From: Anaerolineae bacterium
GTDB taxonomy: Bacteria > Chloroflexota > Anaerolineae > UBA7937 > B3-Chlor
Direction: 5' to 3'
Length of the DNA: 64,000 nt
Assembly (NCBI GenBank): GCA_034411995.1
Contig: DAOUME010000022.1
Location: 3,965-67,964 of the forward strand
The position numbers were made by a program, and so were the translations under genes. The notes beneath the pieces were generated by a model, which was given only the letters and a program-made list of their open reading frames with translations, had not been told where the DNA came from and searched no databases. Positions 11,557 to 46,655 of this stretch are shown here, one piece after another (position 1 is the first letter of the stretch; the number at the start of each line of letters is the position of its first letter).

Positions 11557-11625
11557 GGTAAGCTACCGAAGACAGCCGTTCCACTGGGCCCGGCACAGGA
11601 TCATCCAGACGGAGGCACAGAAGCC

Positions 11626-12294: not shown

Positions 12295-12327
12295 GACTTT
12301 CCCTCCTCGTCCAAGGGGACACGGCCC

Positions 12328-13095: not shown

Positions 13096-13158
13096 TGTCG
13101 CTCCATCCTGCCTGCCGATGGCCCCCGTACGGAAGAGCCGATGATCACGAAGAGCGAT

Positions 13159-30600: not shown

Positions 30601-30679
30601 TGAGGAGATAGACGCGCTGGTGTATGAGTTGTATGGGTTGACCGAGGAGGAGATCGCTATCGTGGAGGGTCGGGCGTGA
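27647..30679 (+). CDS. Type IIG restriction-modification enzyme (single-chain endonuclease + N6-adenine methyltransferase + TRD; MmeI/Eco57I-like)
   Basis: 1010 aa; N-terminal PD-(D/E)xK-like region (APDYCFRVGG...FFLEAKKP), FxGxG-like SAM motif (ILDPACGSGSFLLGAY), NPPY motif (VIGNPPYIRIQ), and C-terminal methyltransferase-type tail DALVYELYGLTEEEIAIVEGRA. GTG start 9 nt after GAGGAGG. Confidence 0.8.
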   Translation: MVAQEDRPQATAPPESRREIEGLVQRFARNRDVYTRPDYKETQVRVEFIDPFFEALGWDVRNVKGYAEQYKDVVHEDAIKISGATKAPDYCFRVGGVRRFFLEAKKPSTAVKGEVGPAYQLRRYAWSARLPLSLLTDFEELAVYDCRQRPRPTDKAGVGRVMYYTFDQYLERLDEIYSIFARESVLKGSFDRYVEDTKRQRGTSEVDVEFLKEIEGWRDELARNLALRNPQLSVHELNFAVQRTIDRIIFLRMCEDRGIERYGGLLGLTAGPHVYDRLGELYREADQKYDSDLFDFQADRLTRSLSLDDKTLKPILSGLYYPDCPYEFSVLPPEILGQVYEQFLGKVIRLTAGHRAKVEEKPEVKKAGGVYYTPSYIVEYIVQQTVGRLIEGKTPQQISKLHILDPACGSGSFLLGAYQHLLDYHRRWYEEHDPEKYATAKRPALYQGRGGEWRLTTGEKKRILLNNIYGVDIDRQAVEVTKLSLLLQVLEGESQETLGQQLKLWRERALPDLGENIKCGNSLIGPDYFEGQLLPDEEEMRRVNPFDWEKEFLQIMKAGGFDAVIGNPPYIRIQRIEHSVADYLFRSYRAPTSKTDLSLVFLERALALATDSGLVGFICTSQWLSTDYGRNMRAMLSDGRLHQVVDFGSLPVFQKANTYPAILILSPTRCDALALKRIRRGEQLNLPGIQATDPVLIDLDGLSDDPWNLGRLDIPTLLGERGLEWRPLSAYANAYIGVLTGMDRAFVVETRAAKQLQLETDLLLPYAYRGAEVQRYAQVEPGALVIYPYREGPGGAPRLIPEPELRRHYPNIHQHLVAHKDALRERRDSRRFYAKGPDWYRHLRAGSFDYIHARKLLVKGIETRTVVGLLDAGTAFNGANCPGVIVEEPQQLSPLYILGILNSGVMSYHLRMICPAKLGGYTRFNARGINSAPIRTLSRTDRAEEARHDKMIALVERMLDLHEKLAAATIPADKKLYQRQIEATDEEIDALVYELYGLTEEEIAIVEGRA
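30548..30679 (+). repeat. Master copy (3-prime end of the RM gene) of a 35-130 bp direct repeat found five more times downstream
   Basis: GCCACCATCCCCGCCGACAAG...GAGGAGATCGCTATCGTGGAGGGTCGGGCGTGA; see partial copies at 31680, 33545, 34771, 37506 and 43994. Confidence 0.85.
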
Positions 30680-30789
30680 GCGGACGGCGCAGCTGGTCGA
30701 GCCGCACATCCGCTGGTAGGCGCGATGGCCCCGAATCTCGCAATCAGGGCAACCCAATGGGCAGCTAGGTTCGACAGCCGGCCGCGGCC

Positions 30790-31656
30790 GTGCGGATATT
30801 GGCTGGGCCGGGAGCGCGGAGAGTTGGAGTGACCGCAGTTGTAGGCGTAAGTTTCCTCTCGGAAGTCATAATGATCGCAGATACTAGGGTGTCCTGGCCA
30901 GGCGCCCCACGGCCACCAGCAGATATGTTGCGGAAGCTGTACCCGGTCTTTTCGCCGCGAACTCCACAAAAGGCAGCTGTGCTGGGTTTCTCCGGCACAA
31001 TATCGGCGGCCAAAACAGTAATGATACACCTCGTGAAGGACAAGCTTCGCAACTACAATCGGCCCCTGATAATGGTCAATCTGAAAGACCATTTGAAGTG
31101 CTGGATAGAAGAAGTGACGGTGACCTGCCTGAGTCCGAGGAGCAGAACCGGCCTCACCTTCATGCTCTGCGGGCTTGAACCCTCCCGCACTGCTGCTGCA
31201 AGAAAGGGAAACGCGCTCGTGAGGTATAGACAGATCTTGGAAACCCACATATACGTCTTCAGTGTGAGCCAGAGCACCGGCAGAGTAGACGTGGTGAAGA
31301 AAGGCCTCTTCGCCGTCATTGGCTCGGGTGCAACACTCGAGCGAGAGCTGAAACGGAAGATTCCGCCAATGATCAGGTTCGGATTCAACCAGCCGAATCT
31401 GCATTGGGCACGAGCTCGCTTGGTGGGCGAAGTAGCGCGAGGAGTTTTTGACAGCGGCGGCGCAACCACAGTTGGCGGACCGTTTCAAGTGTTCCGCATC
31501 ACAGCAGAAGGCTTGGTCACCGAGTACATCTGGCCGGCAAGTATACAACCAAGAGACGTCAGCGTACGACAAGAAGGCCAAAAGACCATAATACAGAATC
31601 GAGACCTCAACCAGACTTACACGCTCCATCCCATATGGGACCTGCCATTGCAGTAG
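30790..31656 (+). CDS. Hypothetical protein, weak resemblance to Ntn-hydrolase / HslV-proteasome-like fold (cassette A)
   Basis: Segments AVLGFSGTISAAKTVMIHLVKDKL and LFAVIGSGATLERELKRK resemble HslV/proteasome-beta motifs (IAGFAGGTADAF.., AIGSGG..). The start is uncertain (GTG 30790 or ATG 30874). Lower GC than surrounding sequence. Confidence 0.4.
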   Translation: MRILAGPGARRVGVTAVVGVSFLSEVIMIADTRVSWPGAPRPPADMLRKLYPVFSPRTPQKAAVLGFSGTISAAKTVMIHLVKDKLRNYNRPLIMVNLKDHLKCWIEEVTVTCLSPRSRTGLTFMLCGLEPSRTAAARKGNALVRYRQILETHIYVFSVSQSTGRVDVVKKGLFAVIGSGATLERELKRKIPPMIRFGFNQPNLHWARARLVGEVARGVFDSGGATTVGGPFQVFRITAEGLVTEYIWPASIQPRDVSVRQEGQKTIIQNRDLNQTYTLHPIWDLPLQ

Positions 31657-31679
31657 TGGGCGAACCAGCAAGTGGCGCC

Positions 31680-31811
31680 GCCACCATCCCCGCTGACAAG
31701 AAGCTCTGCCAGCGCCAGATGGAGGCCACCGATGAGCAAATCGACGCGCTGGTGTACAAATTGTATGGGGTGACGGAGGAAGAGATCGCTATCGCGGAGG
31801 GCCGGGGTTGA
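31680..31811 (+). repeat. Direct repeat copy 2 of the RM-gene 3-prime end (about 130 bp, about 88% identical), ends in TGA
   Basis: GCCACCATCCCCGCTGACAAGAAGCTCTGCCAGCGCCAGATGGAGGCCACCGATGAGCAAATCGACGCGCTGGTGTACAAATTGTATGGGGTGACGGAGGAAGAGATCGCTATCGCGGAGGGCCGGGGTTGA. Translated in frame it reproduces ATIPADKK...ALVYKLYGVTEEEIAIAEGRG*. Confidence 0.85.
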
Positions 31812-31851
31812 CAGCCAGAAACCCGATGCGGTAGGGACCTAGACGGGCGGC

Positions 31852-33510
31852 TTGCGGCATGACCAGACCGGCCTCCTCTCGCAGAGCGCAAGGCCGGGCA
31901 ATGCAGCGACCGGGGGCATCAGGGGAAATACATTGACAACCATCTCGCAGGGTGAACTGAACAACCTGAGCGTGCTCATCGTGGAAGATGCGCGGCAGGC
32001 TCTGGAGATGCTACTACGGTATCAGCAGAAGTACCGCGACGACATCAATTTCGCCGCGAACAAAGGAGGTTTGCTGATTGACATTGGTAGTCGTCTCGGC
32101 GACACCGGTGTTGTACGGCAGGGCATGGCGTCGATTGATGAGTTGCTGCCGAGGGCTGGTGAGCAATCTCGTCCCCTTCTCCTCTACAATCTAGGCAACG
32201 GGTATATGGCGTTGCACTCCATTGCTCGGCGCCAACCTGGCTTCTCATTCGACCCCGATGACACTAGACTCCGTGAAGCCAAGCGCTGTTACCGCGGCGT
32301 GCTGGGAGGATCAGAGCGTCTTGATGCCAACCAACGCGCTGGACTCCGAGTGAACTATGGCAACTGTCTCGCGAGTCTTGGCCGTTCCCTCGAGGCAATC
32401 CACCAATACGAGACGGCTCTCCGCCACGCGCCCAATCACCCCATGGCATGGGGGAACCTGGGAGTTGAGTTGGAGCGCTTCGCGTTCGTTGGTCAAGACC
32501 CGGCCATCCTGCGGGCTGCGAATGAAGGGCTACTCAGGGCTCTTGCAGATGATAGCCTTGAGCAAATGGGAGAGGATTCGGCGCGCCCCGGTTTCGAAAA
32601 GGCGCAGCAACGTATTGCACGGCTGTTGAGCCAGCTTGTAGAAGACGCGGGACTGGGCGGGCCCGAGGTGCCCCAGGCCGCGACACCGTATCATCAAGCG
32701 TACAGCGAGTTCTGTGTGAAGCATGAACTCTTCCTGAATTTCTGTCTGAAGGGCCGCCCATGCCAGCGGGTGGCTGAAGATGCTGTCAGTTTGTCAATTA
32801 CCACGCCACTTGATGACGAGACGACCTACCCTCGGCTCGCACGAGTGGTCAACGAGATCAAAGAACGATACGCGGTCGCCCGCCTACTGCTGTTCGAAGC
32901 CTGCAATCCGCCTCTTGACACTCAGCCATATGACGAGATGACCTACTACGCGGACAATCTCGACTACGCCGTATACGGGATTGGTCCCACCAAGCTGAAG
33001 CTGGCCTTTGAAAGTGCCTACAACATCTTGGACAAGCTGGCCTTCTTCGTCAACGACTATCTCGATCTGGGGATCAAGGTGCGGCTGGTGAGTTTTCAGG
33101 GGCTATGGAAGGAGCGCAAGACGGCCGCTCTCAGGCCTGCGATTGTCGAACGTGGTAATTGGCACCTGTATGGCCTGTACGACCTCTCCAAAGACCTAGC
33201 ACCGACAGGCTACCTTGAGCACCTGCGGCTCACCCGAGACTATCTAACACACCGCTATCTGGTGCTCCATGTTGAGGGGCTAGATTGGCTAACGTCCGCC
33301 GATGGTCCTGGGTACCACTCGGGCTACCGCCAGTTGCTGACCAACACGATCGAATTGATGCGACTCGTCCGCAGTGCGGTCATCTACCTCATCGCCTTCA
33401 TCGACCGAGAGGAGCGCGCGAAACGCCAAGACGGAGAGGGCTCTATTGCACCCATGCGTGTCCCGCCTTATAGGCCTTACCGGTTGGGTCCGCAGGATGC
33501 TCCAATGTAG
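31852..33510 (+). CDS. TPR-repeat protein with C-terminal HEPN-like domain (candidate defence/abortive-infection effector; cassette B)
   Basis: TPR-like helical repeats in the N-terminal half (LLYNLGNGYMALH..., YETALRHAPNHPMAWGNLG). C-terminal region with Rx4H motif (LRLTRDYLTHRYLVLH) in a context resembling LA2681/Abi-type HEPN domains. Confidence 0.5.
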   Translation: MRHDQTGLLSQSARPGNAATGGIRGNTLTTISQGELNNLSVLIVEDARQALEMLLRYQQKYRDDINFAANKGGLLIDIGSRLGDTGVVRQGMASIDELLPRAGEQSRPLLLYNLGNGYMALHSIARRQPGFSFDPDDTRLREAKRCYRGVLGGSERLDANQRAGLRVNYGNCLASLGRSLEAIHQYETALRHAPNHPMAWGNLGVELERFAFVGQDPAILRAANEGLLRALADDSLEQMGEDSARPGFEKAQQRIARLLSQLVEDAGLGGPEVPQAATPYHQAYSEFCVKHELFLNFCLKGRPCQRVAEDAVSLSITTPLDDETTYPRLARVVNEIKERYAVARLLLFEACNPPLDTQPYDEMTYYADNLDYAVYGIGPTKLKLAFESAYNILDKLAFFVNDYLDLGIKVRLVSFQGLWKERKTAALRPAIVERGNWHLYGLYDLSKDLAPTGYLEHLRLTRDYLTHRYLVLHVEGLDWLTSADGPGYHSGYRQLLTNTIELMRLVRSAVIYLIAFIDREERAKRQDGEGSIAPMRVPPYRPYRLGPQDAPM

Positions 33511-33544
33511 TCCCCAGGTGCCGCGTGCAGAACTCTAGTTCGGG

Positions 33545-33598
33545 GTGCTAGTGTATGAGTTATATGGGTTGACCGAGGAGGAGATCGCGATTGTCTGA
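33545..33598 (+). repeat. Direct repeat copy 3 of the RM-gene 3-prime end (about 55 bp), ends in TGA
   Basis: GCTAGTGTATGAGTTATATGGGTTGACCGAGGAGGAGATCGCGATTGTCTGA. Confidence 0.8.
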
Positions 33599-33631
33599 AG
33601 GGCTTCCTCAGCGCAGAGAGTAGGCTGTAGC

Positions 33632-34135
33632 ATGATTCAGCCTTGGAGCGACCCCATACCGTACGACCTATCCCGCACGCTGCGTCGGGCAAGTGTCCCG
33701 CCGGGGTTCAGCAGTAGTGTGCCGCAGACTCCGGGTACGTACGTGATCTATTGCACCGCTCAACCAGACCTATGTGAAGCTATCATTGATATCGGAGAAG
33801 CTGGCCCGCGCGCCAAAGCGAGACCAAAGGGCCTCCGAGGGAGGCTGGCAACTACAGTTGCCCACACGGCCTCTGAAAGGATGGCCGCTGACGTACAGGC
33901 CGGCAAACTCCCGAACAGACTCCGTGTAGTTTGGATCGAGAGGCCGTCCAAAGAGGACGCCAAGGAGTTACAGGACGCACTTATCAGCCTCTTCCGAACG
34001 GATTGCGGACGCCAGCCGCGACACAACAAGAGACTGGAGCAGCACCCAAAGCCTGAGGCCTTCCTGGCGATTTGCGCCGCCCTGAAGAGGCACATTGGCG
34101 GCCTATTGCGCCACCCGACGGCCCGCTGCGGGTGA
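33632..34135 (+). CDS. Hypothetical protein with GIY-YIG-like nuclease motif (cassette C)
   Basis: PGTYVIYCTAQ...AIIDIGEAG...R..E spacing resembles GIY-(10-11)-YIG with downstream Arg/Glu; weak and unverified. Confidence 0.35.
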   Translation: MIQPWSDPIPYDLSRTLRRASVPPGFSSSVPQTPGTYVIYCTAQPDLCEAIIDIGEAGPRAKARPKGLRGRLATTVAHTASERMAADVQAGKLPNRLRVVWIERPSKEDAKELQDALISLFRTDCGRQPRHNKRLEQHPKPEAFLAICAALKRHIGGLLRHPTARCG

Positions 34136-34245
34136 CCAGACCGGCGTGCCCCAGGTTGGAGTGAGCGCTGCCCCCCGGCGGGCTCAGCCCGAGGGGGCCG
34201 GGGGCAAATCGTTCGGTGCAACAGCAGAATCAAAGGAGGAGGAGA

Positions 34246-34691
34246 TGTCTGAGTTGCTCACTGCTATCGGCGTCGTATCAGCCGCTAGTGTGTCGATCCT
34301 TAGTGTCTTTGTCCCTTCTTACTACGACAGGCAGCACCGCAAGGAGGAGAAAGCCGACGCCGAACTCCGAAGAATAGACGAGACTACCTTGGGTTTTCTA
34401 GCACAGCTCTCGAACTTCCGGCATTGGGAACCCAGGAGCCTTCAGAAGATCGCGGGGGATCGTGCACTAGAGCATCTCTACACCGACTTGCAGGTAGCGC
34501 AGTATGCTTGGGAGCGCGCCGTTTGGCCAAAACTGGGTGATCAAGACCGCGCCAAGGTCGAGACCATCCGCACAAGGCTTGAAGGGGTCCATACCGCCAA
34601 CGACCTGTCGAGACGCGCAAATGAGTCGGATGTTCCTGCATTGGCAGATCAAATCCTCGCATTGGCTCGTGCCGCAAATGGACGGCCCTAG
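34246..34691 (+). CDS. Hypothetical small membrane-anchored protein (cassette C)
   Basis: ATG directly after GGAGGAGGAG; N-terminal TM helix (LLTAIGVVSAASVSILSVFV) then a charged helical region. Confidence 0.4.
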
Positions 34692-34770
34692 TCGACCAAG
34701 TGTGTTTGGTTTTGGTGTACAGTGTGCACTGACGCACAGCTGCTTCGGCCCAACAATGGCTTGACCCCAT

Positions 34771-34848
34771 GGGGAGATCGACACGTTGGTGTATCACTTG
34801 TATGGGTTGACGGAGGGAGAGATCGCTATCGTGGAGGGGCGATCGCTG
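34771..34848 (+). repeat. Direct repeat copy 4 of the RM-gene 3-prime end (about 78 bp), ends in TGA
   Basis: GGGGAGATCGACACGTTGGTGTATCACTTGTATGGGTTGACGGAGGGAGAGATCGCTATCGTGGAGGGGCGATCGCTGA. Confidence 0.85.
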
Positions 34849-35029
34849 AACGCGCTGCGCGGACCGGCTACCCCGAAACAGAGTTCGGTGATCTCTCGGG
34901 GCTCGGATGTGGCATGGTGATGGGGACCAACGTTGGGCCACTGCGCCAGTTGAGGTGACTGGGTGGAAAGATGTCCGCATAATCATTAGTTAGCACGCTT
35001 CACGCCGCTGACGCTCGGGAAGGAAAACC

Positions 35030-36085
35030 ATGAGCAAAGAAATCCTAGTGAGAATGGACATACCAATCCCCGCTCACAAAATCGTCAATACACCTGCCAT
35101 GGTTTTCAGCAGGTGGATGCCTCTGGACGAGGATGAGTCTATTGTAGTCCAAGAGGAAAACGCCACCCTGAGGTTATGGTTCGACAGAAGTTGCTGGCAT
35201 AACGTGACTCACGCGGGAGGAGACATACCTAATCACGTGAATGTTCTCGTAGACAAGGTATTCGCAGATGTAACGCTCCGCGACTTGTCTGAGGGTTTAG
35301 TAGACTACATTGAACTCACAGCCACTGAACCTCACCCTCCAGAGAGCCCCTACCAGCAAGAGTACCGGGAGCTAGGACAGAAAGTGTACCTTCTAACTCT
35401 CACCTACCTGAACAGATTGATTAACTACGCACGAAGCATGAAGGGGCAATACTGGCTACAAGAATACCCCCTTAGCGAAGCTGAGGGCCTGTCTACTGTC
35501 AACCTGGCTTTCAAAGCCCGTGTCCTAATCGACTCTGAATGGGTTAGGTGGTTCCCGGATGTCAGGCAGCTAGTTATCGGCAGGGTGGGAGGCTGTCAAG
35601 ACAGAGAGCGTTTCATAGACAAGGACTCCTGGTCACAGGTCAGGAGCTTCATCACATCAAAGCAACGGGCCTCACTTGTCCGGGAACTCCTCGCCGGGGC
35701 AGAGTGGCTCGCTGGAATTGGGCACCGCAGAAGTGCATTGACAGAAGCAATAACAGCACTTGAAGCCGCAATCACCACATTCTCAAACCAGCCCAAAGCA
35801 GAGGAAGCTTTCGGCTCTCTTATTACGGAGAGAATGAACGTGAGCTCACTGAGCAATTGGACTGAAAAGATGGGTTTGTCGGGCACCATTCACTACCTCT
35901 TCCCACTGGTATTCTCTGAAGAGATGATGCCCACCGACATTCTGACAGATTGTCAGGAGGCGATACTAGAGCGCCAGAATGTGGTGCACAACGCTCAGCG
36001 AGATGTTCAGGAAGATAAGCTGTCAGTGTACCTGGAGGCAATTCGCAATATGTGTCGCCTGCTCGAAACTTACCAGCAAACTTAG
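35030..36085 (+). CDS. Hypothetical protein, 351 aa, markedly lower GC (cassette D)
   Basis: AT-richer codon usage than the flanking DNA. No recognisable domain; a C-terminal Rx4H (ERQNVVH) could be an HEPN-like motif or chance. Confidence 0.45.
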   Translation: MSKEILVRMDIPIPAHKIVNTPAMVFSRWMPLDEDESIVVQEENATLRLWFDRSCWHNVTHAGGDIPNHVNVLVDKVFADVTLRDLSEGLVDYIELTATEPHPPESPYQQEYRELGQKVYLLTLTYLNRLINYARSMKGQYWLQEYPLSEAEGLSTVNLAFKARVLIDSEWVRWFPDVRQLVIGRVGGCQDRERFIDKDSWSQVRSFITSKQRASLVRELLAGAEWLAGIGHRRSALTEAITALEAAITTFSNQPKAEEAFGSLITERMNVSSLSNWTEKMGLSGTIHYLFPLVFSEEMMPTDILTDCQEAILERQNVVHNAQRDVQEDKLSVYLEAIRNMCRLLETYQQT

Positions 36086-36259
36086 TACCTAGTCACGCAG
36101 TCCATCCCGAGAAGAGCGTGGTAACAGGTCGCTGGCGGCGACAGCCCCTGTCGGTGCCAGGCTGCGTGTGGAGCGACGACTCGGCGATACTCCAGGCTAG
36201 CGGAAGAGCGTCGACGAGAAGACTCAGGCACGCGAAATGACCTATCGCTTCTACGAGAA

Positions 36260-36460
36260 TTGTGCGTGCGACCCAAGAAGGCGAAGATACATTTCTCCAA
36301 TTGCAGGTCCTGCAACTACGGATTAGGAAAAAACAAGCACAAGGTGGAAGGGCTTCACGGGAGATGGCACGGCCCATTCTCGACGTTCGAGGAGGCATGG
36401 GACGCAGCACAACACACCGGCAAGAAGCCGACCACCTGCGGCCACTGCAGACCTCGGTGA
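36260..36460 (+). CDS. Possible small zinc-ribbon protein (two CxxC pairs)
   Basis: SNCRSC...TCGHC in 66 aa. TTG start and no clear RBS, so low confidence. Confidence 0.2.
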   Translation: MCVRPKKAKIHFSNCRSCNYGLGKNKHKVEGLHGRWHGPFSTFEEAWDAAQHTGKKPTTCGHCRPR

Positions 36461-36574
36461 GAGGGGCGGCGCTGCGCCTTGTGCGCTTGCGCGCCGCTGG
36501 TCCAGCTCTACCCAAGCAGACCGCTCTGCCATGGAGGGGTCAATCACCCAGGCACCCAGCGACACCTTCGTAGA

Positions 36575-36593
36575 GGCGGGTCTGAGACCCGCC
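36575..36593. repeat. Palindrome GGCGGGTCTGAGACCCGCC (member of the GGGTCTSAGACCCGCCC repeat family)
   Basis: Perfect 9+1+9 palindrome followed by CGCAAG, the same tail as the copy at 46635. Confidence 0.6.
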
Positions 36594-36734
36594 CGCAAGC
36601 GGCCTCCCGATTCGTCATGGTCGTTCGCACAAACCTCGGCCGGTGCGCCGGTTTGGAGCACCACGCGCGACGCTGTCGGCCAGGCAGCTCGGATCAAAGA
36701 GCTCCATAGTCACGAGTGAGGGACTAGCAACGTC

Positions 36735-37478
36735 ATGAGCATTCGTTTACTCGATTGCGCGCCGATGGCTCCCCGGTACCCACGGTGGCACCTGGGGACT
36801 CCCTGTCTGCTCGTCGACACCGACCAGGGCCTCGTTCTCGTCGATACCGGCCTCGGCCTGCACGACTTTCTGGCCCCAGGGCCCCTGGTCCGCCTCTTCG
36901 CGTGGGCTTTGCGCTTCCCTCACGATCCCGAGCACGCCGCCGTGCGCCAGCTCTCGCGCCTGGGCCACGACCCCGAATCTGTCCGGCACATCGTGATGAC
37001 CCACCTCCATTTCGACCACGCCGGGGGCCTTCCCGACTTCCCCCACGCTCAGGTTCACGTACACCGCCGCGAGTACGAGGCCATGCTCCATCCTCGCAGT
37101 CTGCTAGAGCTGGGCTACGATGGCCTCGATTTCGCCCATGGGCCCTCCTGGGTTCTCTACGACCAACCCACCGAGGACTGGCTCGGGTTCGAGGCTTTCC
37201 GGCTGCCCTTCACGCCGGAGATGTATCTCGTCCCACTCTTCGGCCACACCCGCGGCCATTGCGGGGTAGCCATCCAGGACGATGATGGTTGGGTCTTGCA
37301 GTGTGCCGACGCCCTGCCCACGAATGCTGACTTCGACCTCACCCCGCCATGGCTCAACCGTTTGGTGATCGGACCGCACGTTGCCAGGTTGCGGGAGTGG
37401 GCTTGCCGCCATCCCGAAGTTCGCCTGTTGGCCGGGCACATGCGGCACCCTTTCCCCGATCACAAGGGCGAAGTCTGA
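36735..37478 (+). CDS. MBL-fold metallo-hydrolase
   Basis: HxHxDH motif (MTHLHFDHAGG) and downstream His/Asp ligands (GHTRGH). Confidence 0.8.
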   Translation: MSIRLLDCAPMAPRYPRWHLGTPCLLVDTDQGLVLVDTGLGLHDFLAPGPLVRLFAWALRFPHDPEHAAVRQLSRLGHDPESVRHIVMTHLHFDHAGGLPDFPHAQVHVHRREYEAMLHPRSLLELGYDGLDFAHGPSWVLYDQPTEDWLGFEAFRLPFTPEMYLVPLFGHTRGHCGVAIQDDDGWVLQCADALPTNADFDLTPPWLNRLVIGPHVARLREWACRHPEVRLLAGHMRHPFPDHKGEV

Positions 37479-37505
37479 GAGTCCCCGGCCGAAGCGGACC
37501 CGACT

Positions 37506-37544
37506 GGAGAAGAGATCGCTATCGTCGAGGGCCGGAATTGCTGA
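37506..37544 (+). repeat. Direct repeat copy 5 of the RM-gene 3-prime end (about 39 bp), ends in TGA
   Basis: GGAGAAGAGATCGCTATCGTCGAGGGCCGGAATTGCTGA. Confidence 0.8.
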
Positions 37545-37836
37545 ACCGCTGAGGCCAGCTTCGCAAGGCCAGGCCTGACACCCGCCCCTACCAACCCCCC
37601 AGCCCTGCGTGCGGCGGGCCTTTCTTTGCCCAACACAGACTCGCGAAAGAACCTGAGCTCAGCATACACTTGCGGCAGCTAGCCCTTCTGGCGCCACTGA
37701 GTGCCGCCCGGACACAGCCCATTGGCGAGGACAAACGTGCGCCTGAGGCGCCAGATGGCTTGACGGCGCCGAACGATATCCCCATAATCACTAGTTGGGA
37801 GGACACAACAGGAGGGAATATGAAAGAGCGCGAATC

Positions 37837-38832
37837 AGTATGGGAAGATTGAGAGTCGGCTTGCTGAACAAGAAACGGGGCAACTTTGCACTCGAAGAAA
37901 GGTTCATAGGCCCCGATGGCGTCGTTGATAGGACGAACGCCGAAGCAGAACATCACCAGCGGGCCCTGACCGAAGCCGGTTACGTTGTCCGCCAGATTCG
38001 CTGGGGCCCTGATTTCATCAACGATCTACAGGCTTCCCCAGTCGATCTTGTGTTCAACGTTTCCAGTCTGGTAGAAGCCGCGATCCTCGAAGAATTGCAG
38101 ATACCCTACGTGGGCTCCGATACGTTCACCATCGCCATCGCCACCGACAAATCGCTGGCGAAAAGGCTCTGGCAGCAGGCGGGCCTGCCGACATCGCCTT
38201 TCTGGCTGGCCAGATCGCAGAAGGACTGTGGCCTGTTTGGGGGCATCCCACCCTTCGAGTATCCCCTGTTCGTCAAGCCGGTGGCCGGCCGAGGCAGCGC
38301 AGGGATCGACGACACGTCCATCGTTCACAGCTACGACCAACTGGTCAGCGCAGTTGTGGAAAGGCTGGAGACTATCGGTCAACCAGTCCTCATAGAGAAG
38401 CTGCTGCGGGGCAGAGAAATCACCCTGGGCGTCCTGGGAAATGAGCGCGCAAGGGCCCTTCCTCCATTAGAGATCGCGTATTGCGAGGGGGATGACACAC
38501 TGACTTTCGAGAAGAAAGAGTTGGACAACGATACCTTCCTCTGCCCTGCTCCGCTGACCGCTGAAGAGACCCACACCATGCAGCAATTGGCGCTTCGGGC
38601 CTACCACGTGTTGGGCTTCAGGGACTTTGGCCGAATTGACACGATCTTGACCGACGAAGGGCCGTGCTTGTTGGAGGGGAACACTTTCGCGGGGCTCATG
38701 TGCACACCCAAGGAGAAACCTCGTAGCTATATTGGCTTCATGGCTCGCGCAGAGGGAAAGGACGGCAAGGCTCTGCTGGATGAGATCATGCAGATAGCTA
38801 TCAGGAGACTCAACTTGAAAGCCTGTGATTGA
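37837..38832 (+). CDS. ATP-grasp enzyme of the D-alanine--D-alanine ligase family
   Basis: Ddl-like N-terminal and ATP-grasp patterns (LRVGLLNKKRG..., EYPLFVKPVAGRGSAGI, ITLGVLG). The ORF was trimmed to the ATG at 37837. Confidence 0.7.
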   Translation, partial: SMGRLRVGLLNKKRGNFALEERFIGPDGVVDRTNAEAEHHQRALTEAGYVVRQIRWGPDFINDLQASPVDLVFNVSSLVEAAILEELQIPYVGSDTFTIAIATDKSLAKRLWQQAGLPTSPFWLARSQKDCGLFGGIPPFEYPLFVKPVAGRGSAGIDDTSIVHSYDQLVSAVVERLETIGQPVLIEKLLRGREITLGVLGNERARALPPLEIAYCEGDDTLTFEKKELDNDTFLCPAPLTAEETHTMQQLALRAYHVLGFRDFGRIDTILTDEGPCLLEGNTFAGLMCTPKEKPRSYIGFMARAEGKDGKALLDEIMQIAIRRLNLKACD

Positions 38833-39436
38833 GATGTCAGTACCTCGGATAGAGATAGAACTCGACAAACTGAGCCATAACGCCCGCAAGCTGATAGCTC
38901 TATACGGTTCCAAGCGAATCCACATCGTGGCTGTCACGAAGGGGCTCTGTGGCTCTCCCAGGATTGCGAATCCTCTGCTCAAGAGCGGATTCCGCTGCTT
39001 CGGCGACTCACGCACCCCCAACGTACGAGAGCTGCGCGAGGGTGGCATAGATGCGCAATTCACCTTCATCCGCTCCCCCATGCCCAGCCGGGTCGAGCGA
39101 GTGCTCGAATCTGACGACGTAAGTCTCGATACAAAGATCGCCGTTATGCAGCTTCTTGCCGATGAGGCCACCAGATGTGGCAGAAGCCATCGAGTCAGTC
39201 TGATGGTTGGGCTGGCCTATCTACGGGAGGGCATACTACCCTCCGATCTCGAGCCGGTGGTGAAGGGGATCATTGGCATGCAAGGCATGGATCCACTTGT
39301 CTCCGGCAGGCTGCGGGACGATAATCTGCTGGGCTGGGGTAGTGCCCGCCCGTGGGAGGAAAGGGCAGGCCCAGCGTGCTCATCCGCGTGGATCGGCGGA
39401 AGGGTCGCGCCTGATTCTCTCCCTGAGCAGCGATGA
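38825..39436 (+). pseudogene. Alanine-racemase-like N-terminal (PLP-binding barrel) fragment, apparently truncated or frameshifted
   Basis: LIALYGSKRIHIVAVTKGLCGS resembles the alanine racemase N-terminal domain. Only about 200 aa are present, the C-terminal 60 aa look like out-of-frame read-through, and the ORF overlaps the downstream ADH start. Confidence 0.35.
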
Positions 39437-39483
39437 CCTTCGAGCAGTCGAACCGGCGCGGTTCGGAAAGGAGGGCTACACCA

Positions 39484-40512
39484 ATGTCTGCTTCAACCAT
39501 ACTGGGATACGCCGCGAGGGCGGTGGGACAACCGCTCGAGCCCTTCACCTACGAGCCGCCGCCGTTGGACGAACACGACGTGCGGGTTTCTGTCACTCAC
39601 TGCGGCGTCTGCCACACCGACGTCCACGCCATCGACGACTACTACGGAATCACCACCTATCCCTTCGCGCCCGGTCACGAGATCGTGGGCTACGTCTCGG
39701 ATGTGGGCCCGGCAGCGTCCGGCCTGAAGGAAGGGGACAGGGTGGGCATAGGCTGGCAGGGCCGTTCTTGCGGGCAGTGTGAGTGGTGCTTGAAGGGAGA
39801 AGAGCAACTGTGTATGGACATCGTCCAGGCGGCAACCTGGCTCCCCTACGGAGGGTTCTCCTCCTCCGTCGTCGTGGACAGCCGCTTCGCCTACGGGCTC
39901 CCTGACGGTATGCCCTCGGAGATAGCCTCGGTGCTCATGTGCGCCGGGATCACCGTCTACTCTCCCCTCCGCTCCTTCGCCGCGCCACCCTCGCAGAAAC
40001 TCGGCATCGTCGGCGTGGGAGGGCTGGGCCATCTCGCCCTACAGTTCGCCCGCGCCTTCGGCTACGAGGTCACCGCCATTTCCTCGTCCCCAGAGAAGAA
40101 GGAGCAGGCGCTGGCCTTCGGCGCAGACCACTTCGTCGTCTCGGACCAGGCCAGCCTGTCCGAGCTCGAGTTCACCTTCGACCTGCTGCTATGCACCGCC
40201 AGCGGCAAGATCGACTGGGTGCCGCTGCTGGACACTCTGAAGAAGAACGGCAAGATGATCCTCGTCGGCTTCCCCGACGTGGAGCTCAATTCGACCGACC
40301 TGGTGGCGCACCAACTCTCCATCCTCACGTCCTTCCTGGGCAACCGGGCGCGAATGCGGGAGATGCTGTCGTTCGCGCAGGCCCACGGCATTACCCCCGC
40401 CATCGAGCAAATGCCCATGTCGGAGGTCAACGAAGCCCTTCAGAGAGTGAGAGACAACCAGGCCCGCTACCGCATCGTGCTCGTCAACGAGACGGAGAGC
40501 ACAGGGGCCTAG
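39484..40512 (+). CDS. Zinc-dependent alcohol dehydrogenase (MDR family)
   Basis: CGVCHTDVH, GHEIVGYV, a structural-zinc Cys cluster (CGQCEWCLKGEEQLC) and GxGxxG (GIVGVGGLGH); ATG at 39484 with GGAGGG RBS. Confidence 0.85.
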   Translation: MSASTILGYAARAVGQPLEPFTYEPPPLDEHDVRVSVTHCGVCHTDVHAIDDYYGITTYPFAPGHEIVGYVSDVGPAASGLKEGDRVGIGWQGRSCGQCEWCLKGEEQLCMDIVQAATWLPYGGFSSSVVVDSRFAYGLPDGMPSEIASVLMCAGITVYSPLRSFAAPPSQKLGIVGVGGLGHLALQFARAFGYEVTAISSSPEKKEQALAFGADHFVVSDQASLSELEFTFDLLLCTASGKIDWVPLLDTLKKNGKMILVGFPDVELNSTDLVAHQLSILTSFLGNRARMREMLSFAQAHGITPAIEQMPMSEVNEALQRVRDNQARYRIVLVNETESTGA

Positions 40513-40590
40513 TCCCCCCTTCCCTCACGGGTGATCTGGTCCAGCCAGACTCGCACCATTACTGCTCAGACTACGGCACAGGAGGCCACC

Positions 40591-41823
40591 ATGGATTACG
40601 ACTTCGACGCCGAGGTCGACCGCCGAGGCACCGACTCTCTGAAATGGGAGTTCATACAGAGCGACGAAGATCCGCTGAAGTGGGAGCTCACCGATTCTTT
40701 CTTCGGAGAAGACCGTACCCTCCCCTTGTGGGTGGCGGACATGGACTTCCCCTGTCCCCAGCCGGTAGTGGATGCGCTGGTGGCCAGGGCCCAGCACGGG
40801 ATCTACGGCTACACCATGCCCTCTCCCGCCTTCTATCGATCCGTCGTCGGCTGGATGCGGAGACGGCACGGGTGGGAGATAGCGCCCGAATGGATCTGTA
40901 TCACCCCTGGGGTCGTGCCGGCCGTCAACATGCTGGTCCGCGCCTTCGTCGCCCCTGGCGACAAAGTACTGATCCAGCCCCCGGTCTACTATCCTTTCTA
41001 CTCCGCCATCGAGAACAACGGCGCCGAGCTGGCCCTCAACCCCCTGATCTACGAGGACGGTCGCTATCGCATGGACCTGGCGGACCTGGAGGCCAAATGC
41101 CAGGATCCTCAGGTCAAGCTGGCCATCCTGTGCAGTCCGCACAACCCCGTGGGGCGCGTGTGGACCCCGGAGGAGCTCCGCCGCTTTGGGGAGATCTGTA
41201 TCGACAACGACGTGCTCGTCGTCTCTGACGAGATCCACGCCGACCTGATCTTCAAAGGTCACGTGTTTACGCCCTTCGCCAAGGTCAGCGAACCCTTCGC
41301 CCAGCATTCCGTCACCTGCACCGCGCCCAGCAAGACCTTCAACCTGGCCGGGTTGCAGACCTCTTGTATCGTCATCCCCAATCACGATCTGCGCTCCGTC
41401 TTCGATAGAATCGTGCAGAGCAACGGGCTGGTCACCGTCGGCACCTTCGGCGCGGTTGCCCTTCAGGCCGCGTACGATCTTGGAGAGGAATGGCTGGGGC
41501 AGCTTCTCGACTATCTCCAGGGGAACCTCGAATACCTCGAGCAGTACGTGGCGGAGCAGATCCCGCAACTATCCGTGGTGCGACCAGAGGGGACCTACCT
41601 GGTCTGGCTCGACTGTCGCCGGCTTGGGCTCAGCAAGTGGGGGCTAAAGCAACTCATGCTGGAGGAGGCGAGAGTCTATCTCGACGAGGGTTTCGTGTTC
41701 GGCCCCCAGGGTGAGGGCTTCGAACGTCTCAACATCGCTTGCCCCCGAGGAGTCCTGGCTGAGGCGCTCGATCGAATCAGGCAGGCCGTGGAAAGCCTGC
41801 CGGCCGGACCGATGTCCGCGTAG
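40591..41823 (+). CDS. PLP-dependent C-S lyase / aminotransferase class I-II (MalY/PatB-like)
   Basis: GTDSLKWE N-terminus, PLP-Lys region (SPHNPVGRVW...S.SKTFNLAGL). Start set at MDYDFDAEVD. Confidence 0.75.
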   Translation: MDYDFDAEVDRRGTDSLKWEFIQSDEDPLKWELTDSFFGEDRTLPLWVADMDFPCPQPVVDALVARAQHGIYGYTMPSPAFYRSVVGWMRRRHGWEIAPEWICITPGVVPAVNMLVRAFVAPGDKVLIQPPVYYPFYSAIENNGAELALNPLIYEDGRYRMDLADLEAKCQDPQVKLAILCSPHNPVGRVWTPEELRRFGEICIDNDVLVVSDEIHADLIFKGHVFTPFAKVSEPFAQHSVTCTAPSKTFNLAGLQTSCIVIPNHDLRSVFDRIVQSNGLVTVGTFGAVALQAAYDLGEEWLGQLLDYLQGNLEYLEQYVAEQIPQLSVVRPEGTYLVWLDCRRLGLSKWGLKQLMLEEARVYLDEGFVFGPQGEGFERLNIACPRGVLAEALDRIRQAVESLPAGPMSA

Positions 41824-41881
41824 CCGGTCGCTGAGCAGCCCCACGCCGTGCTCGTCACATCTCCCAGAGGGTTACAGGAAG

Positions 41882-42886
41882 ATGAACGAAGAGGACCAAC
41901 CTGCTTGGGTGAATCCGCGTCTCGTGCGGCCGCACGGCTGGTCACCCATACTGCACGTCGACCTGGAAAAGATGACAGACCAGCAGAGGCAGACGTTTGC
42001 CCTTCATCGCCTCTCCGGTTTCACGGCTGCGGGTTACCCTGCAGAGAGGTGCTACCATTTCTACACCAACAAGCAAGCTGAGTCCTTCTCGCTGCCCACC
42101 TACGTGTGGACACCCTGGAGCAGAGACTCAACCGCGTTGGAACCCGCGAAGATCGAATCGGTGCAGGAAATGCTGCCGTACGTCGCGGATGAGGAAATTG
42201 TCCATGTCTGTCGTTCTCTCATCGAACAGGGACAACTGCTGGACCACACCAGCGAGCAACTGGGCCGGGCACTCGCCGACTTCCTTGGCCTACCCTCCCC
42301 AGAAACCGACCGGCATTCCGAGCAACTGTGGCGACGAGCGAACGAGTATCGCGCGAAGCACGGCCCGGCCTGGGCAAGTCAGGCACAGATCAGGCCACTG
42401 GTCGCCCAGTTGAAGGACGTCTTCGTGGAGCTGAGTTCGTCGCAGTTTGAGCTTCACGGCAGGCTCCGACCCTATTACGAGCGCCTGGCCCCAGGTGGCG
42501 CGGAGATGGGCGATCAACGAGCCGACGACCTGGTCAACCAGGCCATGGAAGAGCCCGACGCCGATCGTGCCATACGCCTGCTCGAGAGAGCCTTACGATA
42601 CGGCAAGACCGGTATCCCGGCCAGCAGGGCCTACGTGGAACTTGCCGGACGCTACTCAGACCGGGGGGAGACCAAGAGAGCCATCGCCTACTACACCAAG
42701 TCCATCGAAGCCTCCAAGATTCCTAACGCCTACGCTCTCTACTGGCGGGGAGAGCTATACTATCAGCAAGAGGAGTGGGACAAGGCGCTCGGCGATTTCG
42801 AACGGGCGGTGTCCATAGGGCTTTTCTCGCCCGAGTGCGAGCAGGCGCAAGAGTATCTAGCCGAGCTGCGTGGCCGTCAGCCCTAG
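41882..42886 (+). CDS. Hypothetical protein with C-terminal TPR repeats
   Basis: ATG at 41882; C-terminal AIAYYTKSIEA..AYALYWRGELYYQQEEWDKALGDFERAV are TPR-like. Confidence 0.5.
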   Translation: MNEEDQPAWVNPRLVRPHGWSPILHVDLEKMTDQQRQTFALHRLSGFTAAGYPAERCYHFYTNKQAESFSLPTYVWTPWSRDSTALEPAKIESVQEMLPYVADEEIVHVCRSLIEQGQLLDHTSEQLGRALADFLGLPSPETDRHSEQLWRRANEYRAKHGPAWASQAQIRPLVAQLKDVFVELSSSQFELHGRLRPYYERLAPGGAEMGDQRADDLVNQAMEEPDADRAIRLLERALRYGKTGIPASRAYVELAGRYSDRGETKRAIAYYTKSIEASKIPNAYALYWRGELYYQQEEWDKALGDFERAVSIGLFSPECEQAQEYLAELRGRQP

Positions 42887-42897
42887 CGATGACCCGT

Positions 42898-42959
42898 GGG
42901 GGTGGGTCTCAGACCCGCCCCTACGCAGGTGCCCTTGCTACGTGGGGTGATCTCACCCC
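42898..42959. repeat. Dispersed about 50-60 bp repeat (GGGGGTGGGTCTCAGACCCGCCCCTACGCAGGTGCC..TTGCTACGTGG) containing two hairpins
   Basis: About 90% identical to 45063..45110; the core palindrome GGGTCTSAGACCC also occurs at 36575 and 46635. Confidence 0.7.
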
Positions 42960-43066
42960 CGCATACCGTCCGGGCCTGAACAGACATGTCGGCATAGCCA
43001 GTAATCAGCCGCCCCGTCGTGGTACTCACGGTCCCGCTTCGTGGGCAAGGGTAGAGCGGAGGGAGA

Positions 43067-43882
43067 GTGATGACCAAGAAAGGCGAGGACAGTCGCAAAC
43101 CGCTTGGCACCCGCGAATGGTACGATTTCGTTGGTCAACTCGCAGACGCGCTGCCAGGGATGCACCTGGGAGGACAGGAAGCTACGCAGAAACTGCTGGA
43201 GATGTGCGATCTGGAAGCGACGAGCCGCGTTCTCGATGTGGGCTGCGGTGGCGGGAACACAGCCTGCTTCATCGCCGAGCAGTACGGTTCGTCTGTCCGA
43301 GGGATAGACATATCCGAGGTCATGATCGACAAGTCCAAAGAGAGGGCGCGCCGACAGGGACTGGAGGACAAAGTCGAGTTCCGGGTTGCCGACGCGGCCG
43401 AGCTACCCTTCGAGGATGACTCATTTGACGTGGTCATCGTTGAGTCCGTCTTGACGCCGATACCTGGCGACAAGAGCAAGGCGCTTGGGGAGATGGTCAG
43501 GGTTGCGCGTGCCGGAGGGCGGATTGGGGCCAATGAATCCACTGTGGATCCGTCGGCGCCGGAAGAGTGGCTGGCTCTCCTGGACGAGCACCCGGCCATA
43601 CATGGGTACTTCACGCCGCAGACGCTCCGCAGCCTGTTCGAAGAATCCGGGCTGCAAGTGGTGGAGATGATCGAGGCTCAATACGTGGATACCCCGAAGG
43701 CGCTCAAGGACATGGGCCTACGCGCGGTGTTCTCCTTCATGCTCAGGGCCTATCCAAAGATCCTGCTCCGGCTGCTGCGCGACGCACGGATCAGGGAAGC
43801 CAGCAGGGTCGATGGCCAAATGACGAAGCGGGGCAAGGAGTACATGGGCTACACCTTGATCGTTGGGCAGAAACCTGGATAG
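43067..43882 (+). CDS. Class I SAM-dependent methyltransferase (UbiE/COQ5-like)
   Basis: VLDVGCGGGNTACFIAEQYG motif I and DVVIVESVL post-I motif. Confidence 0.75.
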   Translation: MMTKKGEDSRKPLGTREWYDFVGQLADALPGMHLGGQEATQKLLEMCDLEATSRVLDVGCGGGNTACFIAEQYGSSVRGIDISEVMIDKSKERARRQGLEDKVEFRVADAAELPFEDDSFDVVIVESVLTPIPGDKSKALGEMVRVARAGGRIGANESTVDPSAPEEWLALLDEHPAIHGYFTPQTLRSLFEESGLQVVEMIEAQYVDTPKALKDMGLRAVFSFMLRAYPKILLRLLRDARIREASRVDGQMTKRGKEYMGYTLIVGQKPG

Positions 43883-43993
43883 CGACCGCGGCCACGTCGT
43901 AGAAAGTGCAGCGCAAAACGGCAGGTGTCGAATGGATTGTGTTCATAGGGGCGACGGCCCATAAGGCGCTACAGGGCCAGACTCGGGCCACCG

Positions 43994-44030
43994 CTGGAGA
44001 GATCGCTACGGTGGAGGGGCGGGACCGCTG
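43994..44030 (+). repeat. Direct repeat copy 6 of the RM-gene 3-prime end (about 37 bp), ends in TGA
   Basis: GGAGAGATCGCTACGGTGGAGGGGCGGGACCGCTGA. Confidence 0.75.
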
Positions 44031-44047
44031 AGAACAGCGAGGGCGCA

Positions 44048-44078
44048 CTGTAGGGGCGAGTCGGCGACTCGCCCCTAC
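44048..44078. repeat. REP-like palindrome CTGTAGGGGCGAGTCGGCGACTCGCCCCTAC
   Basis: 13-bp perfect arms with GTAGGGG/CCCCTAC ends, located directly after direct-repeat copy 6. Confidence 0.7.
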
Positions 44079-44803: not shown

Positions 44804-45062
44804 AGAGCACCGCCTGCCCTTCGCCCTGTTGTTCACGTCGAGAATCACCGCCCCACAGCTTGCACCGGCGACGGTTGCCGTGCCACCGCCGACCCCGAGC
44901 GCAGGATGCCCGGCCCGCCGCGAGAATCAGGTTCATGGATCCACTGGCACACGCTTCGGTGGGATTGATGGCCAGTCCGTCTCAACCCCCCAACGCTTCT
45001 CCAGGCGGCTGCTACTCGAGATGCTGGGGCTCTGGCGGTATCGGACGCGTGCCGCCCTGGCG

Positions 45063-45110
45063 GGGGTGGGTCTGAGACCCGCCCCTACGAAGGTGCCGTT
45101 GGTACGTGGA
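45063..45110. repeat. Second copy of the dispersed repeat seen at 42898 (GGGGGTGGGTCTGAGACCCGCCCCTACGAAGGTGCCGTTGGTACGTGG)
   Basis: About 44/48 identity to 42898..42945. Confidence 0.7.
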
Positions 45111-46224: not shown

Positions 46225-46634
46225 CATCTCGAACCTCTTCTGGTGTTGTTCGGTCAACAGCGAGCGTGAGCCTAGTCCTCCCTGCACCGGCCAGCGAAGC
46301 GCGCCGCGGAGCGCCTGGAGGCCGAGACCGAGGAACACCACCGGACTGGCGCGGTAGAATCGCCTGAGAGGCGTCCACCGACCACACCTCGCTCGCGGCT
46401 CTTGGGAGCTGTCGCTGGGTGCTGCCAGGAGGCAGCACCCCTGCTTTGCGCTGGTGGAAGTTATGTCTATGTGGCGGTACTGTGCAGCCCGATTCCGCTC
46501 AGAGATGGTTATCGAAGCCCAGAGTTCAACTTGCCTCAGTGGTTCAAGGCGAGACAATGCTCCGTGGGGTCGGCGGCCGAGACGGGAACAATCGTGTCAC
46601 GCTGGTTCGCATACAACAACCCCCCGTGGGCACA

Positions 46635-46655
46635 GGACTGAGACCCGCCCGCAAG
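46635..46655. repeat. Half-copy of GGGTCTGAGACCCGCCCGCAAG repeat (GGACTGAGACCCGCCCGCAAG)
   Basis: Identical over 18 nt to 36584..36601. Confidence 0.55.

Follow-up and report, generated by a model that had tools for sequence, protein, structure and literature searches.

A probable mosaic of unrelated accessory modules in a one-directional array downstream of a type IIG restriction-modification gene of an Anaerolineae bacterium

Gene content of the block

We analyzed a 64,000-nucleotide stretch of contig DAOUME010000022.1 from an Anaerolineae bacterium (hereafter the window), with emphasis on a block of six co-oriented genes at positions 37545-44030, located downstream of a type IIG restriction-modification (RM) gene and flanked by two repeats of that gene's terminus. 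An earlier note on this DNA described the block as a single 6.5-kb insertion carrying a partly decayed D-amino-acid peptide or cell-wall-precursor module. Profile searches and homolog comparison recovered all six genes: a Ddl-like ATP-grasp ligase, an alanine-racemase-like gene, a zinc alcohol dehydrogenase (ADH), a PatB/MalY-type C-S lyase, a tetratricopeptide repeat (TPR) protein and an S-adenosylmethionine (SAM) methyltransferase, the identities of the last four being borne out by the profiles. However, the block is probably a mosaic of at least four unrelated pieces within a one-directional array anchored on the RM gene, rather than a single D-amino-acid pathway or a single insertion. The features on which this reading relies are listed below; T denotes a copy of the RM gene's 3' end and L a conserved promoter leader.

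27647-30679, + strand: type IIG RM gene, 1010 aa, anchor of the array (Pfam Eco57I, N6_Mtase, TaqI_C and HSDR_N; PADLOC REase_MTase_IIG, 752 bits)
37502-37544, + strand: T5, remnant of the RM 3' end, terminating in GEEIAIVEGRNC and a stop codon; left edge of the block
37640-37805, + strand: L, conserved promoter leader (alignment, BLAST, promoter scan 10/12)
37840-38832, + strand: Ddl-like ATP-grasp ligase, 330 aa, intact (Pfam Dala_Dala_lig_C, homologs, dN/dS)
38834-39287, + strand: racemase pseudogene remnant, codons 1-154 of a fold-type III pyridoxal phosphate (PLP) racemase of about 355 aa (tblastn and blastn breakpoints)
39288-39483, + strand: putative deletion junction and leader of the ADH module (homology to L018; promoter-like site at 39297-39325)
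39484-40512, + strand: Zn-dependent alcohol dehydrogenase/aldehyde reductase, Ahr-like (ADH_N and ADH_zinc_N above Pfam cutoffs)
40591-41823, + strand: PatB/MalY-type PLP C-S lyase (TIGR04350, 473.5 bits, cutoff 340)
41805-41850, + strand: degenerate L remnant at the boundary between the PatB module and the TPR module (lacking 27 nt present in L030 and L013)
41882-42886, + strand: TPR protein, 334 aa, separate module (Pfam; about 20 relatives)
42888-42945, strand not applicable: palindrome GGGTCTCAGACCCGCCCCTAC resembling repetitive extragenic palindromic (REP) elements (7 matches versus 0.06 expected)
43070-43882, + strand: class I SAM-dependent methyltransferase (best family DVU_1556, 101 bits, below the cutoff of 155)
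43989-44031, + strand: T6, most decayed remnant of the RM terminus, terminating in AGEIATVEGRDR and a stop codon; right edge of the block (z = 8.1 against shuffles)

Breakpoints and composition within the block

DNA homology to other contigs resolved the block into a piece comprising the leader, the ATP-grasp gene and 154 racemase codons (37640-39287), a second piece comprising ADH and PatB (39296-41805), the TPR gene and the methyltransferase gene. In related Anaerolineae contigs these pieces are found separately and in different orders. The internal breakpoints are located at 37806/37807, 39287/39296 and 41805, and codon composition is heterogeneous, with a GC content at third codon positions (GC3) of 0.70 for the ligase, 0.66 for the racemase remnant, 0.85 for ADH, 0.81 for PatB, 0.73 for the TPR gene and 0.75 for the methyltransferase. 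The differences in GC3 therefore support a mixed origin and, together with the breakpoints, contradict the description of the block as one 6.5-kb insertion.

We then looked for the six-gene set elsewhere, examining the context of the ligase in ten distinct homologous loci. ADH, PatB, TPR or methyltransferase genes accompanied the ligase-racemase pair in none of them (0/10), and all four were found without the pair, in a different order, among four other loci (L018, L030, L103 and L104), so that nothing here points to a six-gene pathway or to one insertion event. The Logan assembly of SRR14802573 is 100% identical to the window over 29040-43870. An independent assembler thus reproduces this segment exactly, and its structure is therefore not assembler-specific.

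An intact ligase beside a racemase remnant

The ligase gene begins with the ATG at 37840, giving 330 aa as in every homolog, and the alternative TTG at 37795 is an over-extension. Its sole Pfam domain is Dala_Dala_lig_C (residues 125-331), while Dala_Dala_lig_N, which holds the D-Ala1 site, was undetected by Pfam. Scores against Ddl models fell short of their cutoffs (NF002378, 128.8 bits versus 243; TIGR01205, 116.7 bits versus 245.65), and those against Van models amounted to 50-80 bits with cutoffs of 495-775. Alignments to structures in the PDB covered residues 75-278 of DdlB only (E = 6e-23 for DdlB 2DLN/1IOV). In the HMMER alignment to 1IOV, DdlB residues K215, R255, D257, E270 and N272 are kept as K226, R265, D267, E279 and N281. 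The omega-loop Tyr216, a determinant of D-Ala2 specificity, is replaced by Glu227, and the S281/L282 segment is replaced as well. A van-type module, one of the possibilities raised earlier, found no counterpart either, as no Van NCBIfam model came near its cutoff and no VanH, VanX or VanRS homolog was present among the scanned open reading frames (ORFs), which cover about half of the window.

The ligase is under purifying selection, with a ratio of nonsynonymous to synonymous substitution rates (dN/dS) of 0.11-0.18 in every pair compared, and it deviates at 5 of 79 near-invariant columns (family range, 2-9). Judging from profile scores and conserved residues, it appears to be neither a Ddl nor a Van enzyme and is predicted to be, most likely, an active ATP-dependent amide-bond ligase, whose substrate would probably not need the neighboring racemase. 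An AlphaFold model based on 24 close homologs was of too low confidence to be used (mean pLDDT 37).

The racemase reading frame had been described as truncated or frameshifted, and as overlapping the start of ADH. Truncation was confirmed, but we found no frameshift: the homology shared with full-length orthologs (353-436 aa) reaches no further than nt 39287, around codon 154, which is the putative deletion junction, and the C-terminal half is present in no frame of the whole 64-kb window. The Ala_racemase_N fragment begins at 38825/38834 and matches only positions 2-150 of the 351 profile positions (Ala_racemase_N/ornithine racemase Orr). It is Orr-like, with 100 bits for the N-terminal half versus a cutoff of 480. 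Past 39287 the ORF is a read-through of unrelated sequence up to 39436, and this tail (39288-39436) runs into the ADH leader; the overlap with ADH arises only with longest-ORF readings. The motif around the PLP-binding lysine (AVTKG) is retained in the remnant as AVTKGLCGS, which is insufficient for activity, and the remnant cannot be active because the C-terminal half, which supplies the second catalytic residue, is gone. Consistently, the remnant drifts almost neutrally (dN/dS of 0.75 versus L011 and 0.40 versus L009, compared to 0.16-0.28 for intact racemase copies).

A conserved ligase-racemase family in Anaerolineae

Homology searches returned 897 relatives of the ligase at E ≤ 0.001, and the best 120 listed are 75-91% identical with 100% coverage. 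The few named relatives are mostly from Chloroflexota/Anaerolineales, one copy with 78% identity is labelled Methanosarcinaceae (P0059), and the family is approximately as conserved as LepA. By its LepA, the organism itself falls among uncultured Anaerolineae. A full-length racemase of 353-436 aa is located directly 3' of the ligase in 6 of the 10 distinct loci (L002/3, L006/7, L009, L011/12, L098 and L099-101), so that ligase and racemase constitute a conserved pair. We defined membership as a ligase of 328-330 aa with at least 75% identity followed by a full-length racemase. The window ligase is a full member, and its racemase partner is a remnant only, as in L008. The idea of a decayed ligase-racemase module stands as far as the conserved pair and the decayed racemase are concerned, but has no support for the remaining genes of the block. 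Nucleotide homology between the window and the pair loci is confined to 37807-39287, at 84-87%.

Recurrent neighbors of the pair encode Octopine_DH-like, AsnB-like and B12-binding domain proteins, DUF2179, CitMHS/ArsB transporters and Na+/H+ exchangers; a second Ddl-like ATP-grasp protein and CBS are also found near it (L002, L006, L009, L011, L098 and L099-L101). A literature search on clusters of ligase, racemase, opine dehydrogenase and AsnB returned no relevant publication. The recurrent linkage of this uncharacterized Anaerolineae pair to opine-dehydrogenase-like, AsnB-like and ion-transport genes suggests that a major uncultured lineage of sediment and sludge produces a small molecule containing a D-amino acid, for instance an osmolyte, metallophore or modification of the wall.

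Three further loci have likewise lost the racemase, each loss being independent, while their ligase is intact. The L008 racemase contains two stop codons as well as a frameshift and is cut short at residue 300; at this site (10995-11901 and 12055-12897), transposase fragments and a gene with a TIR domain lie adjacent. L004/5 and L102 retain no more than the first 12 codons or so, and in L102 (1962-4360) an orphan ligase adjoins an IS21-type transposase pair. These surroundings are of a mobile or variable kind. The orphan ligase has persisted at least four times after loss of the racemase, next to a TIR gene or insertion sequence (IS) elements; more speculatively, it may have an accessory, possibly defense-related role of its own.

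ADH, PatB, TPR and methyltransferase modules

Beyond the racemase junction, the window is homologous from 39296 onward to L018 13595-14667 (86%). Position 13595 of L018 lies about 30 nt downstream of the end of an RM-terminus copy, and this is where the window junction (39287/39296) falls. The ADH start at 39484 agrees with the independent gene call of L001 and with orthologs. Against the NADPH aldehyde reductase model of Ahr (NF047908) the protein scored 357.8 bits, below the equivalog cutoff of 470, and we therefore regard it as a predicted Zn-ADH of the Ahr/AdhP type, not as a proven Ahr. Orthologs with 85-88% amino acid identity are present in L018, L030 and L103, each of them preceded by a T copy. 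Extending this to a rule that T always lies on the 5' side of a module did not succeed: three other arrays bear it out with ADH, whereas a metallo-beta-lactamase (MBL)-fold gene does not, and the rule was not generalized. Similarly, a decayed T copy before the window ADH (around 39330-39415), suggested by MAFFT, was not significant (z = 1.0).

PatB covers positions 10-383 of the 384 positions of TIGR04350 and has orthologs in L013, L030 and L103. The window segment 39427-41805 is homologous to L030 15447-17826 (89%), and DNA homology stops at 41805. L018 and L030 are both arrays behind orthologs of the type IIG RM gene; each has its ADH module right after an RM-terminus copy and carries no ligase. 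PatB is followed by a leader copy and a different gene in L030 and L013, and by a degenerate leader and the TPR gene in the window. ADH and PatB may constitute a small functional two-gene unit.

The TPR gene has different neighbors in L103 and L104. L103, a 722-kb Anaerolineae-like contig, carries orthologs of PatB, ADH, the MBL, DinB, TPR, ICMT and DUF1801, of which the MBL is encoded upstream of the block in the window. Its order is PatB, PEMT, T, ADH, an unnamed gene, T, MBL, DinB, T, methyltransferase, an unnamed gene, TPR, methyltransferase and ICMT, with 23 of 24 genes on one strand and decayed T copies. In L104 the order is T, GNAT, T, LCM and TPR.

RM-terminus repeats, leaders and palindromes

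The T repeats derive from the last 35-136 nt of the RM gene (repeat families D2-D4). A search of the window for the T core GAGATCGCTATCGTGGAGGG with up to 3 mismatches returned 5 matches, all on the + strand, versus 0.03 expected, including 37512-37531 (T5) and 43999-44018 (T6). The repeats flanking the block, as reported earlier, are therefore real. A sixth, more divergent copy is located near 33571. Moving away from the RM gene, the first two copies measure 136 nt each and the following ones roughly 55, 75, 40 and 35 nt. Two other explanations for features of the RM region were discarded. Template and variable repeats of the diversity-generating retroelement type were considered for T1 and T2, but this was rejected for lack of adenine-specific mismatches and of a reverse transcriptase. 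A frameshift in the RM gene was suspected from a match of orf203 to RM N-termini; this match reflects only DNA conservation carried into another frame, and the RM ORF itself aligns over its full length.

The leader is about 150 nt long, contains a TTGAC-17-CATAAT promoter and follows many T copies; conservation also covers the stretch of approximately 90 nt that lies upstream of the -35 hexamer. Upstream of the ligase, the promoter TTGACG-17-CATAAT (37760-37788) is the best sigma-70-type match of the region. Leader copies precede unrelated genes at 34897-35000 in the window and in L013 (1243-1279), L022 (3073-3169 and 4324-4565), L030 (12754-12882 and 14969-15095) and L037 (10471-10595).

Many T copies are also followed by a nested palindrome in which three CACTGAAC face three GTTCAGTG, for example at L024 6432-6520, L037 3144-3230 and L040 7273-7360, with a variant at 34839-34900 in the window. 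The best copy folds with z = -3.4, and possible roles for the element are those of a terminator, protein-binding array or recombination site. Additional REP-like GC-rich palindromes (GGGTCTGAGACCCGCCCCTAC) occupy intergenic spacers of the array (36563-36606, 45062-45109 and 46634-46650), a perfect palindrome is found downstream of T6 (44050-44078), and other perfect palindromes are located at 24619-24651/27309-27341. No Rfam match was obtained within 30-48 kb of the window, even at E ≤ 1.

Similar arrays in related genomes

To survey such arrays, we searched 80 fetched metagenomic loci carrying relatives of the RM gene for T copies with BLAST. Overall, 119 copies were found in 69 sequences (68 fetched loci and the window), none of them on the opposite strand, and 25 sequences contained 2-6 copies with a median spacing of about 1.4-1.8 kb. 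The right end of T is always the RM stop codon, while left ends vary, so that lengths range between 35 and over 200 nt; apart from T, the arrays contain RM fragments from the extreme N-terminus only. The window array extends over 30544-44031 and continues to about 50.4 kb. Arrays were recognized in L018, L020, L022-L026, L028, L030, L037, L038, L040, L042, L103 and L104, and those of L103 and L104 carry T copies without an RM gene within 10 kb.

A comparison of L038 and L042 revealed a 2.7-kb indel whose joint lies inside T and which alters the last residues of the RM protein. Therefore, T copies do recombine. L020 (2004-2294) and L030 (2975-3265) each have, upstream of an intact RM gene, a "mini-RM" remnant that joins RM codons 1-55 directly to codons 967-1009, and whole RM genes therefore also turn over in arrays.

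The cassette proteins are highly diverse, with 82 ORFs falling into 71 clusters. Domains of a defense type (Old/GajA-like, PIN_8, TIR, Cap15 receptor, SPFH and helicases, with HEPN in the window) are mixed with metabolic ones. Some cassettes are common to several arrays: a 167-aa ORF is shared with L022, DUF333 with L037 (where it is T-bounded), and ADH/PatB likewise recur. Within the window, a cassette at 31933-33510 encodes a protein with TPR and HEPN_LA2681 domains. Another, at 36735-37478, encodes the MBL-fold protein, for which precomputed annotation gives a weak match to the Anti-Pycsar protein Apyc1 and a lactonase-like similarity; its ortholog in the L103 array is 86% identical. PADLOC returned no match for the window ligase, MBL, HEPN or cassette proteins of no assigned family.

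No integrase, transposase or recombinase was detected among 20 scanned window ORFs (approximately 9-27 kb and 47.8-57 kb), and no recombinase domain among the 25 most frequent of 43 Pfam families represented by 71 cassette proteins from 21 closely related array loci. A crude regular-expression scan for attC-like sites (RYYYAAC..GTTRRRY with complementary arms) was negative in the window, L103, L018, L030 and L037. A literature search on cassette arrays built on RM termini and on the LYGLT motif returned nothing relevant.

Elsewhere in the window

Two further observations concern regions outside the array. A radical SAM/SPASM protein with a PqqD-like N-terminus (12328-14532, - strand) adjoins a SAM methyltransferase, and the two may be a maturation pair for peptides that are made by ribosomes and modified after translation (RiPPs). 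Three tandem 186-nt repeats with 74-76% identity are located within a long ORF (58611-59168).

Origin of the block and of the array

We propose that the block belongs to a long array of accessory modules that all point one way and assort independently, downstream of a type IIG RM gene in the chromosome of an uncultured member of the Anaerolineae. In its first piece (37640-39287), a promoter leader would be fused with a fragment, 1.48 kb long, of a unit made of ATP-grasp ligase and PLP racemase, which is widespread and highly conserved in Anaerolineae. In the simplest account, which we infer from the homology breakpoints, a single deletion would have fused racemase codon 154 to the ADH leader, removing the 3' half of the racemase along with the T copy before ADH. 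Thereafter, the racemase remnant would have drifted while the ligase was kept under its own strong promoter; ADH with PatB, the TPR gene and the methyltransferase would be unrelated passengers, and recombination between T copies would add or remove cassettes. Several points weigh against this proposal. ADH and PatB remain neighbors both in the window and in L030, and probably also in L018; the window and Logan assemblies are probably derived from the same reads; and pairwise dN/dS of the ligase averages both lineages, which could mask a recent relaxation of selection. Lastly, the ancestral arrangement of ligase, full racemase, T and ADH is present in no related contig, so that the deletion is reconstructed rather than observed.

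The reading of the six genes as one partly decayed D-amino-acid peptide or cell-wall module, inserted once as 6.5 kb between RM-terminus repeats, draws on the adjacency of a Ddl-like ligase to an Alr-family racemase and on the shared orientation of the genes between T5 and T6. We consider it very improbable: the four downstream genes are absent from all ten ligase loci and assort without the ligase elsewhere, sharp breakpoints and a GC3 discontinuity run through the block, and T5 and T6, which are about 70-75% alike by eye (not computed) and differ in extent, do not resemble a fresh target duplication. Even less credible is that the ATP-grasp gene is the housekeeping D-Ala-D-Ala ligase of the organism. 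Its top-scoring families and solved structures are indeed Ddl, but it scores below the Ddl cutoffs, lacks a detected Dala_Dala_lig_N, aligns to only part of DdlB and carries Glu in place of Tyr216. Moreover, a mur/fts context was seen in none of the ten loci, the ligase lies beside transposase genes or fragments in two of them (L008 and L102) and beside a TIR gene in L008, and the window copy sits in a variable island with atypical GC3. Recognizing a stranded ligase, a dead racemase and unrelated neighbors prevents the annotation of a van-like or peptide-antibiotic module, and the array architecture and the uncharacterized ligase-racemase family are more interesting than the block as first described.

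With regard to the array, we infer that T copies act as insertion sites, as opposed to being deletion substrates only or scars of lost integrative elements. One alternative is a chromosomal integron, or a cluster of attC sites lacking integron-integrases (CALIN), with the repeats serving as attC-type sites for an integron integrase encoded elsewhere. The unidirectional array of diverse, mostly single-gene modules, a mixture of defense and accessory functions typical of sedentary integrons, the resemblance of the nested palindrome ACTGAAC...GTTCAGT after some T copies to R''/R' boxes, and the mention of Chloroflexota in integron reviews would all fit. Yet neither an integrase or recombinase nor an attC-like site emerged from the scans described above, cassettes have their own promoters, T5 and T6 have no accompanying nested palindrome, and the repeat demonstrably consists of coding sequence from the RM gene's 3' end, its right boundary fixed and its left one variable, whereas an attC would be a self-contained hairpin; we regard an integron as improbable. 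An equally doubtful alternative is that T copies are scars of serial site-specific integration of small islands at the RM 3' end, each island having supplied a replacement 3' end, with the integrases since lost. Tandem direct repeats of a 3' end, in one orientation and all ending at the stop codon, are the classic signature of such events, and window copies become shorter and more decayed farther from the RM gene. However, no integrase remnant was seen in the 71 representative cassette ORFs from 21 closely related array loci within their 25 most frequent Pfam families, the cassettes are very small given their median spacing, left ends vary too widely to share a crossover core, and T copies in L103 and L104 have no RM gene nearby.

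A more speculative possibility, which we put forward tentatively and consider rather unlikely, is that T copies, often together with the nested palindrome and leader, are working recombination sites of an integrase-less, integron-like system of Anaerolineae. Excision between two T copies would yield a circle of T plus gene able to re-enter any genome with a related RM gene, DNA-level conservation of the RM C-terminal coding sequence would provide the homology, and one-directional cassette arrays would accumulate. If T copies are confirmed to be functional, this would represent a new route for pooling and exchanging accessory and defense genes without a dedicated recombinase.

Comparison with known systems

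The ligase resembles Ddl (DdlB 2DLN/1IOV) and VanA, VanC and VanG in its central and C-terminal ATP-grasp domains and catalytic residues, but it scores well below all curated Ddl and Van cutoffs, its N-terminal substrate domain is unrecognizable and its context is not a cell-wall cluster. In VanC/VanT, in Aslfm/Racfm of Enterococcus faecium and in PylC acting on D-ornithine, a D-amino acid made by a racemase is passed to an ATP-grasp enzyme. The six loci in which the ligase is followed by a full-length PLP racemase, often near AsnB-like and dehydrogenase genes, are reminiscent of these systems, although the family differs in its Orr-like racemase, in its Octopine_DH-like, AsnB-like, B12-binding and transporter partners and, in the window, in its dead racemase.

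At the level of the array, the unidirectional succession of diverse small modules with a recurring separator and defense genes is shared with integron arrays and CALINs. In contrast to them, the array has no IntI or canonical attC in the scans made, its cassettes bear promoters and its separator is a coding 3' end. Arrays of integrative and conjugative elements (ICEs) and cis-mobilizable elements (CIMEs) of the tRNA or fda type arise by tandem accretion of integrative elements at a gene's 3' end. They have in common with the present array direct repeats of the target 3' end between inserts, with older copies more decayed, but in the latter no integrases were seen, inserts measure 0.7-4 kb with one or two genes, and repeat length is variable. 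Finally, as in RM-anchored defense islands, an RM gene is followed in related arrays by HEPN, Old/GajA-like, TIR, PIN, Cap15-receptor-domain and SPFH genes, the difference being that repeats of the RM gene's own terminus and a shared leader organize the array, with metabolic genes mixed in.

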